A stretch of 64,000 bases of DNA from Escherichia phage KEP4. The stretch lies in the sequence record PP047754. The stretch is one strand, 5' to 3'. Position numbers and translations under genes: made by a program. Below are positions 28,684 to 34,970 of the stretch, one piece after another. The notes beneath the pieces are model-generated. The model had not been told where the DNA came from. It saw nothing but the letters and a program-made list of their open reading frames with translations, and did no database searches. Position 1 is the first letter of the stretch. Each line of letters begins with the position of its first letter.

Positions 28684-29142
28684 ATGATATACGCATACAA
28701 AATTGAAACGATAACTAATGGAAAGGTCTACATCGGTGTGACCAATCACCCACAACGAAGATATGATCAGCATTTTGCGAATGCTTTTCATCATGGAGTC
28801 CAAAGTGAATTGTATGATGCCATGCGTAAGTATGGAACATCTGGATTTACTTTCGTTGTAATTGCTCAGACCGATGAAGTCCATAAATGGGAATTAGAGA
28901 AGCAACTCATCGCTCAATATAATTCTTATGAGATGGGTTACAACATGAATAAAGGCGGTAATGATGGAAGTCATATGCTGGGTAAAACTGCAGCAAAATT
29001 GACATCTACAGGTGAACACATTGGTCTTGTTTCTCTCATAGATCCCCGTTGGGAATTGTGTGAAATCGAACCCGTTTTAAGCAATGTTGACCACGGATTT
29101 GATTTTTCTTCCATGAAGATTAAAAGATTGACGACTAATTAG
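28684..29142 (+). CDS. GIY-YIG nuclease (free-standing, homing-endonuclease-like; 152 aa)
   Basis: IYAYK...KVYIGVT...RRYDQH...E...YNMNKGG matches GIY / YIG / Arg / Glu / Asn catalytic pattern; inserted between sheath and tube genes. Confidence 0.7.
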   Translation: MIYAYKIETITNGKVYIGVTNHPQRRYDQHFANAFHHGVQSELYDAMRKYGTSGFTFVVIAQTDEVHKWELEKQLIAQYNSYEMGYNMNKGGNDGSHMLGKTAAKLTSTGEHIGLVSLIDPRWELCEIEPVLSNVDHGFDFSSMKIKRLTTN

Positions 29143-29172: not shown

Positions 29173-29706
29173 ATGGCGACAGTCAATGAGTTTCGCGCAG
29201 CCATGTCACGAGGGGGCGGCGTACAACGCCAACACCGCTGGCGTGTGACTGTAAACTTTCCTTCTTTTGTTGCTGGTTCCGACACAATTCGTGACGTGTC
29301 CTTGCTGGCTGTAACCACCAACACCCCAACAGGTCAGCTGGGCGAAATTCTGGTGCCCTGGGGTGGTCGTGAACTTCCGTTCCCAGGGGATCGTCGTTTC
29401 GAAGCGCTTCCTGTGACGTTCATTAACGTGGTGAACAACGCTCCATACAATGCTTTTGAAGTGTGGCAGCAATTCATCAACGGTAGTGAAAACAACCGCG
29501 CCAGCGCGAATCCAGATGATTATTTCCGTGATATCATCATGGAACTTCTGGACGCGAATGACAACGTGACTAAGACATGGACTTTGCAGGGTGGCTGGCC
29601 TCAAAACCTCGGCCAATTGGAACTCGATATGTCGGCAATGGACTCTTACACACAGTTCACTGTCGACTTGCGTTATTTCCAAGCCGTTTCTGACAAGTCA
29701 TTGTAA
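29173..29706 (+). CDS. tail tube protein (T4 gp19-like)
   Basis: 177 aa; C-terminal WTLQGGWPQNLGQLELD resembles T4 gp19 GLWPTNVGELQLD; GGAG SD. Confidence 0.8.
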   Translation: MATVNEFRAAMSRGGGVQRQHRWRVTVNFPSFVAGSDTIRDVSLLAVTTNTPTGQLGEILVPWGGRELPFPGDRRFEALPVTFINVVNNAPYNAFEVWQQFINGSENNRASANPDDYFRDIIMELLDANDNVTKTWTLQGGWPQNLGQLELDMSAMDSYTQFTVDLRYFQAVSDKSL

Positions 29707-29719
29707 TGTCCTCGGTGCT

Positions 29720-29738
29720 GGGGGAATGTTATTCCCCC
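29720..29738 (+). terminator. hairpin gggggaat-gtt-attccccc after the tube gene (weak terminator or attenuator)
   Basis: 8-bp perfect inverted repeat; no clear U-tract. Confidence 0.4.
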
Positions 29739-29773
29739 TCACTAATTACAAGAAAATGTTGAGGACTTAGATC

Positions 29774-31456
29774 ATGGCTGGATACGGCAGAGGGTTCTTC
29801 GGTTTGTTTGGCGGCGGCGGTTTAGTCAATGCCAAAGTCGACACCGATAAGTTAGCCCAAAAACAAGATGAATTGTTGCTCACCAAGGCGACAGTTGTTG
29901 CTCTGGACGATGCTCAAGACGGTTCTATAATCCTTCAGGGCGGTGCAAACACCTACAACTATGTTGGCGTTGAGAGTGAACTTCTCAGCGTTAAAACAGT
30001 TGTGGAAGAATATCAGTCCATGGCTCAACAGCCTGAAATTCGCAAAGCGGTGGACATTATTGTCAATGATGTTGTCACCTGTGAGGAAGATGAAACTCCA
30101 GTGACAGTAAACCTTGACAAAGTTGAAGGGATATCTGATACTGTTAAAGAATCTATCACCGAATGCTTCAAAGAAGTTATGCACTTGATGGACTTTGACA
30201 ATACAGCATATCAGAAGATCCGGAAATGGTATGTTGACGGTCGACAAGCATATCATGTCATCGTTGATCCCACGAATAAAAAAGGCGGGATCAAGAAATT
30301 GGTTATGCTTGATTCTCGTTGCATTCGTCCTGTCTATATCGTTGAGAAGGCGATGCGTGAAGGCGGTATTGAAGCAATAGAATCTGTAACATTGAAGTAT
30401 TATTACAACCCGAATTATAATCGAAACCAATTCACTGGCCAATCTGGTACTTCCCAGAACTTCCAGCCTTCACAGCAAGAACTCGTATTCGATGACGAAA
30501 GCATTGTTTACATCGATAGTGGTGAAGAGCCATTGGCCAATGGTATTGTCCCAGGCCTTTTAAATCCTGCTATCCGTCCGTTGAACAACCTGGTTACGAC
30601 TGAAGATGCGACTGTAATTTATGCCATCACTCGCGCCCCTGAGAAACGCGCATTCTATCTTGACGTCGGTACTCTCGGTAAGAAATCTGCTGAAGAATAC
30701 ATGACCATGATGATGGGTAAATTCAAAAACCGCAACGCATATGACCGCACCACTGGTAAGATAACAGGTAATGCCCATCTTATGGGTATTGCAGAGGATT
30801 ATTGGTTGCCGCGCCGCGAAGGTCAGAATGCTACAGAGATTGCGACTGTTGGGGGTGGGAATCAATTGGGCGAAATGGATCACGTGAACTATTTCCGTGA
30901 AAAACTCTATGATGCTCTAATGATCCCTAAGAGCCGCCTCCAAGAGGAAGGATCTATTAACATTGGGGGTTCTAACCTTGCGGAGATTACACAGGAAGAG
31001 CTGCGCTTCAGCAAGTTCTGTGCTGGGTTACGACGCCGTTACTCCCATTTCTTCATGGAATTCTTGCGCCGCCAGTTAATTTTGAAAGGCGTTACGGATG
31101 AAAAGGATTGGAATGAGAAGATCAAACCGTTTATAAAGTTTGAATTCACATCCGATAGTTACATTCGTGAACAACAAGAAAACGCTATCTTGAATGATCG
31201 TCTGGCTTCATTGAACACTGTTGAGCCATTTGTTGGTTCCATTTTCTCCATAGACTACGTCATGAGAAATGTATTGCGTATGTCTGATGAAGAAGTTAAA
31301 GAACAACAAACGAAGATCGCGGAAGAGAAAAAGAAAGGTCTCTATCCGAAGGTTCAAGCAGATGAAACTGGCAATTATAGCGGTTCAGATGTTAGTCCGT
31401 TGAAGTTTAAACCTGAGACTATCCCATTCTCCGGTTCAACAGACGATAGTATTTAA
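29774..31456 (+). CDS. portal protein (T4 gp20-like)
   Basis: 560 aa; ITRAPEKRAFYLDVGTL and EDYWLPRREGQ resemble T4 gp20 (ITRAPDRRVWYVDTGNM, EDYWLQRRDGK). Confidence 0.85.
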   Translation: MAGYGRGFFGLFGGGGLVNAKVDTDKLAQKQDELLLTKATVVALDDAQDGSIILQGGANTYNYVGVESELLSVKTVVEEYQSMAQQPEIRKAVDIIVNDVVTCEEDETPVTVNLDKVEGISDTVKESITECFKEVMHLMDFDNTAYQKIRKWYVDGRQAYHVIVDPTNKKGGIKKLVMLDSRCIRPVYIVEKAMREGGIEAIESVTLKYYYNPNYNRNQFTGQSGTSQNFQPSQQELVFDDESIVYIDSGEEPLANGIVPGLLNPAIRPLNNLVTTEDATVIYAITRAPEKRAFYLDVGTLGKKSAEEYMTMMMGKFKNRNAYDRTTGKITGNAHLMGIAEDYWLPRREGQNATEIATVGGGNQLGEMDHVNYFREKLYDALMIPKSRLQEEGSINIGGSNLAEITQEELRFSKFCAGLRRRYSHFFMEFLRRQLILKGVTDEKDWNEKIKPFIKFEFTSDSYIREQQENAILNDRLASLNTVEPFVGSIFSIDYVMRNVLRMSDEEVKEQQTKIAEEKKKGLYPKVQADETGNYSGSDVSPLKFKPETIPFSGSTDDSI

Positions 31457-31463
31457 AGTTCAA

Positions 31464-31470
31464 CTAAATA
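31464..31470 (+). promoter_or_regulatory. late-promoter-like box CTAAATA
   Basis: 28 nt upstream of ATG 31498. Confidence 0.4.
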
Positions 31471-31497
31471 TAGAAAATTAATTCGGAGATCAAAATC

Positions 31498-31668
31498 ATG
31501 AGCGCAATTGATATCGTTCGTGCAGTAATTGACGGTGACACTGAAACTGCTGTTGCAGAATGCAACATGGAACTTGATGCACGTAGTCAAGAACTATTAA
31601 ACCAAGGCACCGCATATGTTCTGGATTCTATCGCAGCTGATATGAATTCAAACAACAACGGCCAGTAA
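31498..31668 (+). CDS. small prohead core protein (T4 gp67-like position), 56 aa
   Basis: not in ORF track (<60 aa); ATG with GGAG SD, acidic 56-aa product between portal and protease genes. Confidence 0.5.
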   Translation: MSAIDIVRAVIDGDTETAVAECNMELDARSQELLNQGTAYVLDSIAADMNSNNNGQ

Positions 31669-31676
31669 GGAGATGC

Positions 31677-31994
31677 ATGATGGAAATCACAGAGATCGCC
31701 ACGTTCGCTGATTTCCTGGCCTCTCGTATGGACGAGCAGCGAGTCATCGATAAAGTGAACGCTCGTGGTAAACGCCGCCGCCGCTTGAAATGTGCCCCTG
31801 GGTTCAAATTGTCGGCTGATGGTTCACGTTGTGAAGTTATGGACGCCAGCGAACGTCGTGTTCGCAAGATCGGCAACCGCAAAGCCCTCCGCTCTAAAAA
31901 GCGTATGGGAATGGGCTATCAACGTAAAATCGAGCGCCGCAAGAAAAAGGCTATGAAGTTCCGCAAAATGATGGGACTGAGTAAGAACAAGTAA
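31677..31994 (+). CDS. highly basic prohead core / internal head protein candidate (T4 gp68-like position)
   Basis: 105 aa with Arg/Lys-rich C-terminal half (GKRRRRLK, RKALRSKKR, ERRKKKAMKFRK); AGGAG SD. Confidence 0.55.
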   Translation: MMEITEIATFADFLASRMDEQRVIDKVNARGKRRRRLKCAPGFKLSADGSRCEVMDASERRVRKIGNRKALRSKKRMGMGYQRKIERRKKKAMKFRKMMGLSKNK

Positions 31995-32001
31995 GGAGTT
32001 T

Positions 32002-32670
32002 ATGATGAAACTGTTGCGTGAGATCACAGCGATAGGGAAGGATCTTCAAATCGGTGAGGCCACAACCTCAACTGGTGGGAAGGCCATGTTCATCGAAGGT
32101 CCGTTTGTGATGTGTAACCAAGTCAACCGTAACGGGCGTAACTATGATCTGCAGAAAGTGGGTATTCCTGCTGTCGAAGCATACGACAAAGAGTATATCC
32201 AAGATCGTCGCGCAATCGGTGAAGTCACACATCCTGACTATCCTTTCCCTAATCTGGTGGAAGCTGCGCTCAAAACCGAATCCCTTCGCTGGGAAGGCAC
32301 TAATGCCATCGGTCGGGCGCGAATTTTAAATACACCAAAAGGCCAAATCATACGTGCATTGGCCGAAGCAGACTTCAATCTGGCCGTGTCTACACGTGGC
32401 CTGGGTGAGACCAAGTCAGTAAACGGTTATGATGACGTTCAGCCTGGCTTTATGCTCACCGCTGTTGATGCAGTCGACCGTCCTTCTGGACAAGTTTGTT
32501 ATGTTAAGGCTGTGAGTGAATCTGTTGAATGGCAGCTTGATGAGGCTTCGGGTATTTGGATGCCTCGTGATGTTAAAGGGAAAGTTGTAGACCAGTTGGT
32601 GAAAACCAATATCCAGGTTGAAGACGATTTCCTGCGCCGCCTTGATGCAGCATTGAATCATCTGGGCTGA
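32002..32670 (+). CDS. prohead core protease (T4 gp21-like)
   Basis: 222 aa at the gp21 position; AAGGAG SD fits ATG 32005 better than 32002. Confidence 0.75.
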   Translation: MMKLLREITAIGKDLQIGEATTSTGGKAMFIEGPFVMCNQVNRNGRNYDLQKVGIPAVEAYDKEYIQDRRAIGEVTHPDYPFPNLVEAALKTESLRWEGTNAIGRARILNTPKGQIIRALAEADFNLAVSTRGLGETKSVNGYDDVQPGFMLTAVDAVDRPSGQVCYVKAVSESVEWQLDEASGIWMPRDVKGKVVDQLVKTNIQVEDDFLRRLDAALNHLG

Positions 32671-32681
32671 ATTTCAGCTCA

Positions 32682-32688
32682 CTAAATA
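32682..32688 (+). promoter_or_regulatory. late-promoter-like box CTAAATA
   Basis: 29 nt upstream of scaffold ATG 32717. Confidence 0.4.
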
Positions 32689-32716
32689 CTGAAAAATCGT
32701 TCAGAAGGAAACTATC

Positions 32717-33556
32717 ATGAAACCTGAATTGCAAAATCTGTTTGAAGGCGTTAACGGCATCAGCCCAGATTTCCTGGATAAAGTATCCAATTTGCTGGAA
32801 TCGAAAGTTGAAGCGGCTCGTCTGAAAGCTATCCAAGAAACCGAAGCAGCTGGCAACGTCGAGCGCCTGAATTTGGTAGAATCTCACCAGAAAGAAATCG
32901 CCGACCTGAAAGAAAATTTCATTCTGCAATTGGCTGGGAAAGTTGACTCATTCCTCAACGCGGTGGTTGAAGAATGGGCTAACAAAAATGCCCCAGCTAT
33001 TGACGCTCAGATCAAAACTGAAGCTGCTGAACGCTTCCTCACTGGTTTCTCCAACGTGCTGAAAGAAGCAGGTGTGAGTTTCGCTACTGACCCAGACGGT
33101 CAGATTGCTGCCCTCACCAGTCGCCTTGCTGAAGCAGAACAACGCGCCAGCATTGCCAATACTGAATTGGCTCAGCTCAAAGAAAGTGAAACCAAACGCC
33201 AGCGCAATGATGTCATTGATCGTATTTGTGAAGGTATGGTTGACACCAAGAAAGACACTGTTGTCAACCTGCTGGAAGGTATTGAATTCCAGACCGAGTC
33301 TGAATTTGAATCCCGTGTGCGCACCTTCCGTAACCTGGTAGAAGGCAAAGATGACTTCTCTGATAAAGTCGGCAAAGACAATGAAAAAGGCAAGCCGGAT
33401 GGCGACAATTCTGAAAAAGACATCAAAGAAGGTAAAAAACCGAAGAAAGAAGGTGAAGCCGACGATGATGACGATGACGATGATGACAAAGACGAAGTTG
33501 GCAAAGAAGTCAACGAAGCCGTCCGTCGCCAGATCAGTGCTTTGATGAACGGCTAA
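32717..33556 (+). CDS. prohead scaffolding core protein (T4 gp22-like)
   Basis: 279 aa, alpha-helical, acidic C-terminal run EADDDDDDDDKDE; synteny. Confidence 0.8.
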   Translation: MKPELQNLFEGVNGISPDFLDKVSNLLESKVEAARLKAIQETEAAGNVERLNLVESHQKEIADLKENFILQLAGKVDSFLNAVVEEWANKNAPAIDAQIKTEAAERFLTGFSNVLKEAGVSFATDPDGQIAALTSRLAEAEQRASIANTELAQLKESETKRQRNDVIDRICEGMVDTKKDTVVNLLEGIEFQTESEFESRVRTFRNLVEGKDDFSDKVGKDNEKGKPDGDNSEKDIKEGKKPKKEGEADDDDDDDDDKDEVGKEVNEAVRRQISALMNG

Positions 33557-33569
33557 TTTTAGCAGCCAC

Positions 33570-33597
33570 AGCCCTCGAAAGGGGGCTTGATTTTGAA
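33570..33597 (+). terminator. terminator-like hairpin (agccctc-gaaa-gggggct + TGATTTTG)
   Basis: 7-bp stem (one G-U pair), GNRA-type loop, U-rich tail between scaffold and capsid genes. Confidence 0.55.
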
Positions 33598-33647
33598 CTA
33601 CTAAGTAATTTCAACTTAACTGAATATCAATGTAAGGAACGAGCATC

Positions 33648-34970
33648 ATGACTAAGAAACTTGTAACCGAAGAAATGCGCAAACAGTGGCTGCCAGTTCT
33701 CCAAAAAGAATCTGAAGCTATTCAACCTCTGTCTGCCGAAAACGTAACCATCCGTCTGATGCAGAACCAGGCTGAATGGAACGCAAAAAACCTGGGCGAA
33801 TCTGACGCACCTGGTTCTGTGAACAGCACTGTCGGTAAATGGCAGCCAGTTCTGATCGACATGGCAAAACGTCTGGCGCCGATCAACATCGCGATGGACT
33901 TCTTCGGTGTTCAGCCGCTGTCTGGTCCTGACGGTCAGATCTTTGCACTGCGCGCTCGCCAGGGTGTTGGTGACAGTTCCAACACCGCACAGTCTCGTAA
34001 AGAACTGTTCATGCAGGAAGCCGATTCCGGCTATTCCGGTGATGGTACTGTACAGGCTGGCGACCCGTCAGGCTTTAGTCAGGCTGAAATCGAAGGTTCT
34101 GGCTCTGGCGTGACCACTATCGGTAAAGGTATGCCGTCAACCGACGCGGAACTGCTGGGTACTACCACCAATCCGTGGGCGCGTGTTGGTATCACCGTTC
34201 AGAAAGCGACCGTTACTGCCAAGTCTCGCGGCCTGTATGCTGATTACAGCCATGAACTGCGTCAGGATATGATGGCAATTCACGGCGAAGACGTGGATAA
34301 TATCCTGTCTGACGTGATGGTAACTGAAATTCAGGCGGAAATGAACCGTGAATTCATCCGTACCATGAACTTCAGTGCTGTTCGCTTCAAAAAATTCGGA
34401 ACCAACGGTGTTGTTGATATCGCGCAGGACATCTCTGGTCGTTGGGCGCTGGAAAAATGGAAGTTCCTGACTTTCATGCTGGAAGTTGAAGCGAACGGTA
34501 TCGGTGTTGACACCCGTCGTGGTAAAGGCAACCGTGTTCTGTGTTCTCCGAACGTGGCATCCGCTCTGGCGATGTCTGGCATGCTGGACTATGCTCCAGT
34601 TCTGCAGGAAAACACTAAACTGGCTGTTGACCCGACTGGCCAGACCTTCGCTGGTGTTCTGTCCAACGGTATGCGCGTCTATGTTGACCCGTATGCTGTA
34701 GCAGAATATATCACTCTGGCATACAAAGGCGCAACTGCGCTGGATGCTGGTATCTTCTTCGCGCCGTATGTGCCGCTGGAAATGTACCGCACCCAGGGTG
34801 AAACCACCTTCGCTCCGCGTATGGCGTTCAAAACCCGTTACGGCATCTGTGCTAACCCGTTCGTACAGATTCCGGCTAACCAAGACCCGCAGGTTTACGT
34901 GACTGCTGACGGTATCGCTCAAGACAGCAACCCGTATTTCCGCAAAGGTCTGATCAAATCTCTGTTCTAA
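33648..34970 (+). CDS. major capsid protein (T4 gp23-like)
   Basis: FFGVQPLSGPDGQIFALRA, AKSRGLYADYSHELRQD, ICANPF and NPYFRKGLIK match conserved T4 gp23 segments. Confidence 0.9.
   Translation: MTKKLVTEEMRKQWLPVLQKESEAIQPLSAENVTIRLMQNQAEWNAKNLGESDAPGSVNSTVGKWQPVLIDMAKRLAPINIAMDFFGVQPLSGPDGQIFALRARQGVGDSSNTAQSRKELFMQEADSGYSGDGTVQAGDPSGFSQAEIEGSGSGVTTIGKGMPSTDAELLGTTTNPWARVGITVQKATVTAKSRGLYADYSHELRQDMMAIHGEDVDNILSDVMVTEIQAEMNREFIRTMNFSAVRFKKFGTNGVVDIAQDISGRWALEKWKFLTFMLEVEANGIGVDTRRGKGNRVLCSPNVASALAMSGMLDYAPVLQENTKLAVDPTGQTFAGVLSNGMRVYVDPYAVAEYITLAYKGATALDAGIFFAPYVPLEMYRTQGETTFAPRMAFKTRYGICANPFVQIPANQDPQVYVTADGIAQDSNPYFRKGLIKSLF

Follow-up and report, generated by a model that had tools for sequence, protein, structure and literature searches.

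A homologue of the T4 gp68 basic domain, probably a prohead core protein, encoded beside the prohead protease gene of Escherichia phage KEP4

Between the portal and prohead protease genes of Escherichia phage KEP4 lies a gene for a small, strongly basic protein of 105 aa that, based on profile comparisons, is homologous to the basic domain of T4 gp68. This protein is probably the Ackermannviridae orthologue of gp68, which is a minor constituent of the scaffolding core in proheads. Our analysis covered a stretch of 64,000 nucleotides (record PP047754; hereafter the window), in which positions 29700-34000 share 99.7% identity with Salmonella phage SeSz-1 (Kuttervirus, Ackermannviridae, ViI-like phages). 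The gene is an ordinary one and its identity is already known, as public records name a prohead core or gp68-like protein. By tblastn the protein is present in 307 phage records, 175 of them at 99% identity or more, under the labels "hypothetical protein", "putative prohead core protein" and "head scaffolding protein", and one database record carries the label "gp68-like protein"; NCBIfam has no model for it. The gene, its ribosome-binding site and its neighbours are arranged as follows.

29774..31456, + strand: portal protein, homologue of T4 gp20 (PF07230, E 1e-148).
31498..31668, + strand: 56-aa acidic ORF (pI 4.05, net charge -8) occupying the slot of T4 gene 67, matching phrog_4097 only.
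31667..31672, + strand: Shine-Dalgarno sequence AAGGAG, read from the sequence, overlapping the TAA stop of the 56-aa ORF upstream.
31677..31994, + strand: CDS of the putative gp68-like prohead core protein (phrog_3503, E 1.5e-52; 100% identical proteins in many Kuttervirus genomes).
32002..32670, + strand: prohead protease, homologue of T4 gp21, directly downstream of the gp68-like gene (PF03420 Peptidase_S77, E 3.6e-28).
32717..33556, + strand: major scaffolding protein, homologue of T4 gp22, net charge -23, with a poly-Asp tail (PF25623 T4_CASP, E 2e-44).
33648..34970, + strand: major capsid protein, homologue of T4 gp23 (PF07068, E 2.5e-122; 36% identity to T4 gp23).

Reading of the sequence together with conservation confirms that the CDS at 31677-31994 (+) is a real ORF. 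It has two in-frame ATGs, at 31677 and 31680, and the second, which gives 104 aa, is the start used in most database records of the protein. The TAAGGAG...ATGATG arrangement at the start of the gene is seen again at its junction with the protease gene (31992-32007). We found no terminator-like sites between the portal, gp68-like, protease and scaffold genes; thus, the genes from portal to scaffold, including the gp68-like gene, are likely co-transcribed. The T4-type late promoter consensus TATAAATA was not found near the gp68-like gene, and its two sites in the window, both at about 38 kb, represent the chance level.

The original prediction described a 105-aa product with a C-terminal half dominated by Arg and Lys, encoded between the portal and the prohead protease in the slot where T4 encodes core proteins, and both descriptions are borne out. 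The protein contains 34 K+R and 11 D+E residues (computed pI 11.41, net charge +23), and the share of K and R is 42% in residues 53-105 and 47% in residues 59-105. Of the window's ORFs that start with ATG and encode at least 60 aa, it ranks second in basicity; the sole more basic ORF is an out-of-frame artefact of the poly-Asp tract of the scaffold gene. The flanking genes are identified by their PF07230 and PF03420 matches, and the occupant of the slot appears to be a true gp68 homologue (see below). The order in the window (portal, 56-aa ORF, 105-aa ORF, Peptidase_S77 protease, T4_CASP scaffold and Gp23) is that of T4 genes 20-67-68-21-22-23, with the gp68-like ORF placed, as T4 gene 68 is, between the portal gene plus a small acidic ORF and the protease gene. 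The gene encoding the conserved basic module of this protein is also immediately 5' of a Peptidase_S77 protease gene in seven of seven other genomic contexts, usually with the portal gene just before it. IMG/VR locus scans with two family members (P0022 and P0043) as queries found nothing.

The scaffold, with its net charge of -23 and poly-Asp tail, is a candidate electrostatic partner of the gp68-like protein, and the 56-aa acidic protein could be a second, putative acidic partner. The 56-aa ORF has no GP67 match in Pfam and no gp67-related match in the Pfam, PHROG and family searches, and its own family is tiny. Its counterpart in Sajous1 (gp153) gave 2 spectra in virions.

The window protein is assigned to the gp68 family through profile-profile comparison and transitive matches. 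Its match to phrog_3503 ("head scaffolding protein") runs end to end, and T4 gp68 itself matches the same PHROG (E 0.0017). Conversely, the PHROG of T4 gp68 (phrog_1049) is matched by 39 of 110 long family members (best E 1.4e-11); the window protein itself gives no match to phrog_1049 at E <=0.1. Direct BLASTP of the window protein against T4 gp68 is insignificant (E 12), with the last 35 aa aligned at 46% identity. We compared a 150-sequence module alignment with a 121-sequence T4 gp68 family alignment using hhalign, and the two profiles align with a probability of 97.4% and an E of 1.1e-11 over 78 columns, pairing residues 17-102 of the window protein with residues 64-141 of T4 gp68. Controls made from the reversed gp68 alignment and from 22 column-shuffled versions of the basic half reached a probability of at most 1.6% (E >=0.03). 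As all of these controls are far weaker, the gp68 match is not a composition effect. The best-conserved stretch common to the window family and T4 gp68 is KKALKRRKALGLS. A weak precomputed match to PF26830 (Phage_T4_gp68) is recorded for one family intermediate (P0032), and the hits of a Foldseek search of BFVD predicted structures include models named "prohead core protein", one of which is from the Tevenvirinae phage CfP1 (probability 0.99, TM 0.58).

T4 gp68, a 17K protein, belongs to the scaffolding core and is listed at 240 copies in proheads, at none in mature heads and as uncleaved (PMC9026906). It has been linked to the determination of head size (Keller et al. 1984, cited in PMC9026906; also PMC1079782), and according to PMC9958956 it is a core protein that gp21 degrades to small peptides.

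Within the window protein, the region homologous to gp68 and the peptide that precedes it comprise the following elements.

31677..31736, + strand: N-terminal peptide (aa 1-20, net charge -4, predicted helix at aa 10-18), a proposed core-targeting propeptide.
31728..31736, + strand: M18-D19-E20, a predicted prohead-protease motif ([LIVM]-x-E, cut after E), conserved at the N-terminal edge of the module.
31737..31991, + strand: conserved basic module, aa 21-105 (profile search, hhalign and an AF2 model with pLDDT 90.3).
31791..31832, + strand: Cys39...Cys52 beta-hairpin (CAPGFKLSADGSRC), resembling the last two-cysteine EGF sub-domain.
31845..31970, + strand: two long Arg/Lys-rich helices, aa 57-76 and 79/81-98, predicted by AF2 and ending in the KKAMKFRKMMGL family signature (conserved A92, R96 and G100).

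An exhaustive search with an HMM built from 18 close relatives recovered the module in 218 diverged clusters (E <=1e-3), and phrog_3503 and phrog_33445 cover "head scaffolding" proteins of ViI-like, Menderavirus, PhiW-14-like and pf16-like phages. The module is about 85 residues long and lies no more than 5 residues from the C-terminus in 140 of 149 representatives, and the part that precedes it ranges from 0 to 447 residues in length. With a 20-residue N-terminal peptide (net charge -4) and the +27 module, the window protein represents a minimal form of the family. Column statistics show that C39, G42 and C52 are invariant in all 150 diverged members, and that G31, G57, T73, G78, A92, R96 and G100 are near-invariant across the same 150 sequences. 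An origin of the long members by fusion of gp67 and gp68 was considered but is not supported: none matches phrog_1064 or PF17634 at E <=0.01, and residues 1-45 of T4 gp67 reach a best E of 0.07 against their N-terminal parts (reversed controls, 1.3). In some phages the slot between portal and protease is filled by a single gene, which keeps the fusion as a lead only.

The AF2 model of residues 15-105, based on a diverse alignment of 30 sequences, is confident (mean pLDDT 90.3, pTM 0.68) and consists of four short strands (22-27, 33-38, 43-45 and 52-54) followed by two basic helices (57-76 and 79-98) that form a helical hairpin. A full-length model from a shallower alignment has the same topology (pLDDT 72.6) and an extra helix, residues 10-18, that ends at M18-D-E20. 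The PDB contains no sequence match to the protein, and a Foldseek fold search of the PDB gave nothing significant, the top hits being the EGF2 domains of factors VIIa and Xa (best E 0.42). The C39-C52 segment shares with the C-terminal sub-domain of EGF a local C-x2-G-(F/Y)-x-L-x-x-D-G-x2-C pattern and a predicted beta-hairpin. Membership in the EGF domain family was rejected, as Pfam cEGF (PF12662) scores 17.8 bits against a cut-off of 26.6 (E 0.003) and only 2 of the 6 EGF cysteines are present; the gp68-like protein is, moreover, a cytoplasmic phage protein. We therefore treat the likeness as a local hairpin resemblance and not as family membership. The two cysteines could form a disulfide in the released virion or bridge a dimer through a metal.

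The T4 prohead protease gp21 has a specificity for L/I-x-E (PMC9026906). The original prediction had suggested a search for prohead-protease cleavage motifs, and a near-invariant [LIVM]-x-E is present at the N-terminal edge of the basic domain: across the 150 diverged members, position 18 is L in 93, I in 27, V in 13 and M in 9, and position 20 is E in 145. The two sides of this junction differ in charge and in motif content. In the N-terminal parts the median net charge is -24 and [LI]xE motifs number 504 vs 347 expected from shuffles; in the modules the median net charge is +28 and the motifs number 10 vs 25.7 expected. These counts come from mutually related sequences and so are not independent. 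No [LI]xE occurs inside the module in 143 of 149 members; thus, most modules should survive the protease. In the window protein we predict cleavage after E20, which would leave a mature product of 85 aa (10.05 kDa, pI 11.9, net charge +27; computed).

The N-terminal peptide is predicted to have a targeting role. Its residues T9, F10, D12 and F13 are invariant among close relatives of the window protein, and the stretch TFADFLAS (positions 9-16) resembles the T4 capsid-targeting sequence (CTS) TYQEFIAE; T4 IPII and IPIII begin MKTYQEFIAE. A strict CTS-like N-terminal decapeptide, defined by an aromatic residue at positions 4 and 7, I or L at 8 and E at 10, occurs in 8 of 149 members vs 0.12 expected by shuffling (e.g. 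MKSFKKFIAE). The stretch in the window protein fails this strict pattern, being shifted and having no P1 Glu.

These features, together with detections in virions, bear on an alternative that accepts the gp68 homology and that we consider unlikely, namely a T4 IP-type internal head protein, in which the protease removes a CTS and the +27 domain stays with the DNA, to be ejected with it or to organise it. In its favour are the extreme basicity of the protein, a layout of short N-terminal peptide, [LIVM]-x-E and basic body that is also that of T4 IPII and IPIII (MKTYQEFIAE|A...), the excess of strict CTS-like decapeptides and the general absence of [LI]xE from the modules. The predicted fold is also compact, at about 10 kDa, and would be unlikely to pass through the 14-17 A pores of T4 capsomers (PMC9546572).

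Virion proteomics of two related phages adds to this case. The 101-aa orthologue in LIMEstone1 (ORF141) received the score "confirmed structural protein" in CsCl-purified virions in which the LIMEstone1 scaffold and protease were not detected; the score comes from 1 peptide with 8.91% coverage, or 9 of 101 residues, a length that agrees with CEVMVASER or, allowing for one missed cleavage, with MDEQKVIDK. Sajous1 gp154, which belongs to the 90% identity cluster of the window protein, gave 2 spectra in CsCl-purified virions. Trypsin leaves only about 5 usable peptides from the gp68-like protein. The detections are minimal, and the Sajous1 virions also gave the protease (13 spectra) and the scaffold (4 spectra), which makes carry-over plausible.

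Other observations argue against an internal head protein. Mature T4 heads are listed with 0 copies of gp68 (PMC9026906), the CTS-like stretch of the window protein is off the positional pattern and has no P1 Glu, and no sequence similarity links the protein to IPII or IPIII, neither of which gave a significant hit by BLASTP or with the module HMM (bit scores of about 0-18; best BLASTP E 0.049, on 26 residues). With a copy number of 240 borrowed from T4, +27 domains would contribute about 6,500 charges vs about 314,000 phosphates in a 157-kb genome. Neutralisation of about 2% makes bulk DNA condensation implausible. The original prediction of a DNA-condensing or injected protein was made to depend on detection in capsids, and orthologues do occur at trace level in virions of LIMEstone1 and Sajous1. 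The idea itself is neither directly supported nor refuted; these trace detections contrast with the zero copies listed for T4 gp68.

A broader form of the same idea would make the gp68 basic module, across the T4 superfamily, an internal head protein that is released by the protease and resistant to it. The variable acidic N-terminal part, which in some members starts with a CTS, would serve only to deliver the module into the core and mask its charge, and the two-cysteine +27 domain, perhaps disulfide-bonded or metal-bridged, would stay with the DNA in the mature head; the 0 copies reported for T4 would then be a detection artefact that affects a small and highly basic fragment. We regard this as improbable.

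Several observations count against our preferred reading of the protein as a gp68-like core component. T4 gp68 and most family members begin with a long acidic half that contains several cleavage sites, a region missing from the window protein, whose predicted cleavage site has Met at P3 in place of Leu or Ile (Met in 9 of 150 members). The presence of orthologues in purified virions is a poorer fit to a scaffold that is fully removed, and depletion of the motif inside the module would be needless for a purely transient scaffold component. Furthermore, the T4 phenotype, loss of the prolate shape, cannot be the conserved role when ViI-like heads are isometric, and reviews give conflicting accounts of the cleavage of T4 gp68 and of its essentiality.

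Much less probable is a cytoplasmic nucleic-acid-binding regulator or chaperone that never enters heads, for example one that regulates translation of the head operon or, as a chaperone, shields the charge of the acidic scaffold. Only the basic composition and the tight coupling to the head operon speak for it, but the protein is a homologue of one located biochemically in T4 prohead cores, the protease motif is conserved at the edge of its domain, orthologues are found in purified virions, and searches of Pfam and NCBIfam gave no match to an RNA- or DNA-binding family. A spurious chance ORF in the spacer between portal and protease, which only the small size of the gene would suggest, is already refuted by conservation and peptide evidence, namely the full-length PHROG match (E 1.5e-52), the fold-defining residues conserved across 218 diverged clusters, the confident AF2 model and the orthologue peptides found by mass spectrometry.

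As a gp68-like core protein, the product would be expressed late, its gene sharing one compact transcription unit with those for the portal, the protease and the scaffold. Its CTS-like N-terminal helix (aa 1-20) and its basic folded C-terminal domain would bring it into the acidic core on the portal, a core that would contain the gp22-like scaffold (net charge -23, poly-Asp tail) and the 56-aa acidic protein (net charge -8). Once activated, the prohead protease would cut after E20 (M-D-E|Q), at the junction of helix and domain, and free the 85-aa, +27 domain (10.05 kDa, pI 11.9), which has no further L/I-x-E sites. By analogy with T4, most of the protein would leave or be lost before or during DNA packaging, and a small amount would stay in virions. 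We infer incorporation into the core, the binding partners, the E20 cleavage and the fate of the freed domain from these comparisons; the gene itself, its synteny, the conserved motif, the two cysteines and the conservation of the predicted fold are established by the analysis, as is the gp68 homology.

The heads of ViI-like phages are isometric. As these phages keep the gene, its conserved role is likely to be in core assembly generally and not in the control of prolate length. This argues for a qualification of the suggestion in PMC1079782 that isometric heads perhaps have no need for such proteins.

Identification of the gene is of little consequence by itself, given that the phage genus is well sequenced and that the gene, a recognisable homologue of one for a T4 core protein, already carries such an annotation. 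What is added beyond the known is modest and testable: a conserved, foldable two-cysteine module encoded beside the protease gene, with a protease motif at its edge. The retention of gp68-type proteins by isometric ViI-like phages suggests for them a conserved role beyond setting how long the prolate T4 head becomes. Knowing what becomes of the freed basic domain once the head has matured would shed light on a part of the T4-type scaffolding core that is poorly characterised, and might help in designing cargo packaging by means of targeting sequences.

Compared with known systems, the window protein is closest to T4 gp68 in three respects. Both have a homologous basic C-terminal domain with an end-anchored KKA(M/L)K-RK--GLS tail, both have L/I/M-x-E at the N-terminal edge of that domain (M18-D19-E20 aligns with L65-N66-E67), and both are encoded directly upstream of the prohead protease, after the portal and one small acidic ORF. 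The N-terminal regions differ: T4 gp68 has an acidic half of 67 residues (net charge -13) with four L/I-x-E sites besides the junction, whereas that of the window protein is only 20 aa long (net charge -4) with one ITE and the junction MDE. T4 gp68 also does not have the Cys-x2-G-x9-Cys hairpin that is invariant in the module family, and is 7 residues shorter there. T4 heads are prolate and gp68 mutants make isometric ones, whereas ViI-like heads are already isometric, and the phenotype is therefore not directly transferable. Proteins of phrog_33445, whose C-terminus is matched by the module (E 4e-17), differ in having a long acidic N-terminal extension, and there a single gene fills the whole interval between portal and protease (e.g. 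a 269-aa Stenotrophomonas phage protein). T4 IPI, IPII and IPIII are likewise small basic prohead-core proteins in which a short N-terminal peptide is followed by an L/I-x-E cleavage site, and the TFADFLA of the window protein is similar to the TYQEFIA of the T4 CTS, some relatives beginning MK(T/S)F--FI-E. Unlike the gp68-like module (+27), however, the T4 internal proteins have net charges of +4 and +9, their genes are scattered in the T4 genome and do not occupy the slot between portal and protease, and they are present at about 360 copies per mature head, as against 0 for gp68 (PMC9026906).

The gene encoding the 105-aa gp68-like prohead core protein lies between a small acidic ORF and the protease gene. 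At both junctions TAAGGAG is followed by ATGATG, and the stop codon overlaps the Shine-Dalgarno sequence:

31498-31668, + strand: acidic ORF of 56 aa (pI 4.05, net charge -8), in the slot of T4 gene 67
31666-31682: junction from the 56-aa ORF to the 105-aa ORF, TAAGGAG...ATGATG
31992-32007: junction from the 105-aa ORF to the protease gene, TAAGGAG...ATGATG

With its doubled start codons, this arrangement, identical at the two junctions, points to tightly coupled translation. Homology between the 56-aa product and gp67 (PF17634, phrog_1064) was not detectable. Its family, phrog_4097, is very narrow, and its counterpart in phage Sajous1, gp153, was represented by two spectra in virions. A 64-aa ORF (33351-33545, + strand; 33% Lys/Arg) does not represent a second basic protein: it is just the poly-Asp/Glu tract of the scaffold gene, which spans 32717-33556, read in another frame.

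Elsewhere in the window, a homing endonuclease ORF, annotated in the same way in Salmonella phage SeSz-1, is inserted between the genes for the tail sheath and the tail tube:

28684-29142, + strand: GIY-YIG homing endonuclease ORF, 152 aa

At the equivalent site, phage LIMEstone1 carries a different homing endonuclease, F-LimVIII.

A protein 100% identical to the 105-aa Kuttervirus product is also encoded in GenBank OR844942.1, an unannotated 111-kb record titled 'Enterococcus phage Efm 3-10'. Mislabelling of, or contamination by, a Salmonella/E. coli phage sequence probably accounts for this record. The LIMEstone1 orthologue (prohead core protein, ORF141) is listed at 38.57 kDa in Table 2 of PMC3296691, and as annotated has 101 aa (about 12 kDa). 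The listed mass looks like a table error, because the 8.91% coverage reported there corresponds to 9/101 residues.

In several distant T4-like phages, the whole portal-protease interval is taken up by a single gene of 222-462 aa bearing the basic module of this family, and a separate small ORF is absent from it, as on these contigs:

L005, 6001-7389: single module-bearing gene (P0043)
L007, 5001-5669: single module-bearing gene (P0032)
L008, 3740-4549: single module-bearing gene

A few members (P0043, P0047 and P0132) have the module in an internal position, with ~80-190 more residues after it. HNH/NUMOD4 endonuclease matches were found in one of the 110 long relatives scanned. Judging from N-terminal sequences, our guess is that the carrier is P0081 (249 aa), with the matches N-terminal to the module; this relative could have arisen by fusion to a homing endonuclease, or could be an artefact of gene calling.

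A strict positional pattern for the T4 capsid-targeting sequence (CTS) matched 8 of 149 gp68-like family members, compared with 0.12 expected. The carriers of a CTS-like N-terminal decapeptide are metagenomic relatives:

P0132, P0110, P0063, P0096, P0142, P0150, P0165, P0067

In some gp68-like relatives, the first ten residues (e.g. MKSFKKFIAE or MKTFDQFITE) are almost identical to the CTS of the T4 internal proteins, MKTYQEFIAE.
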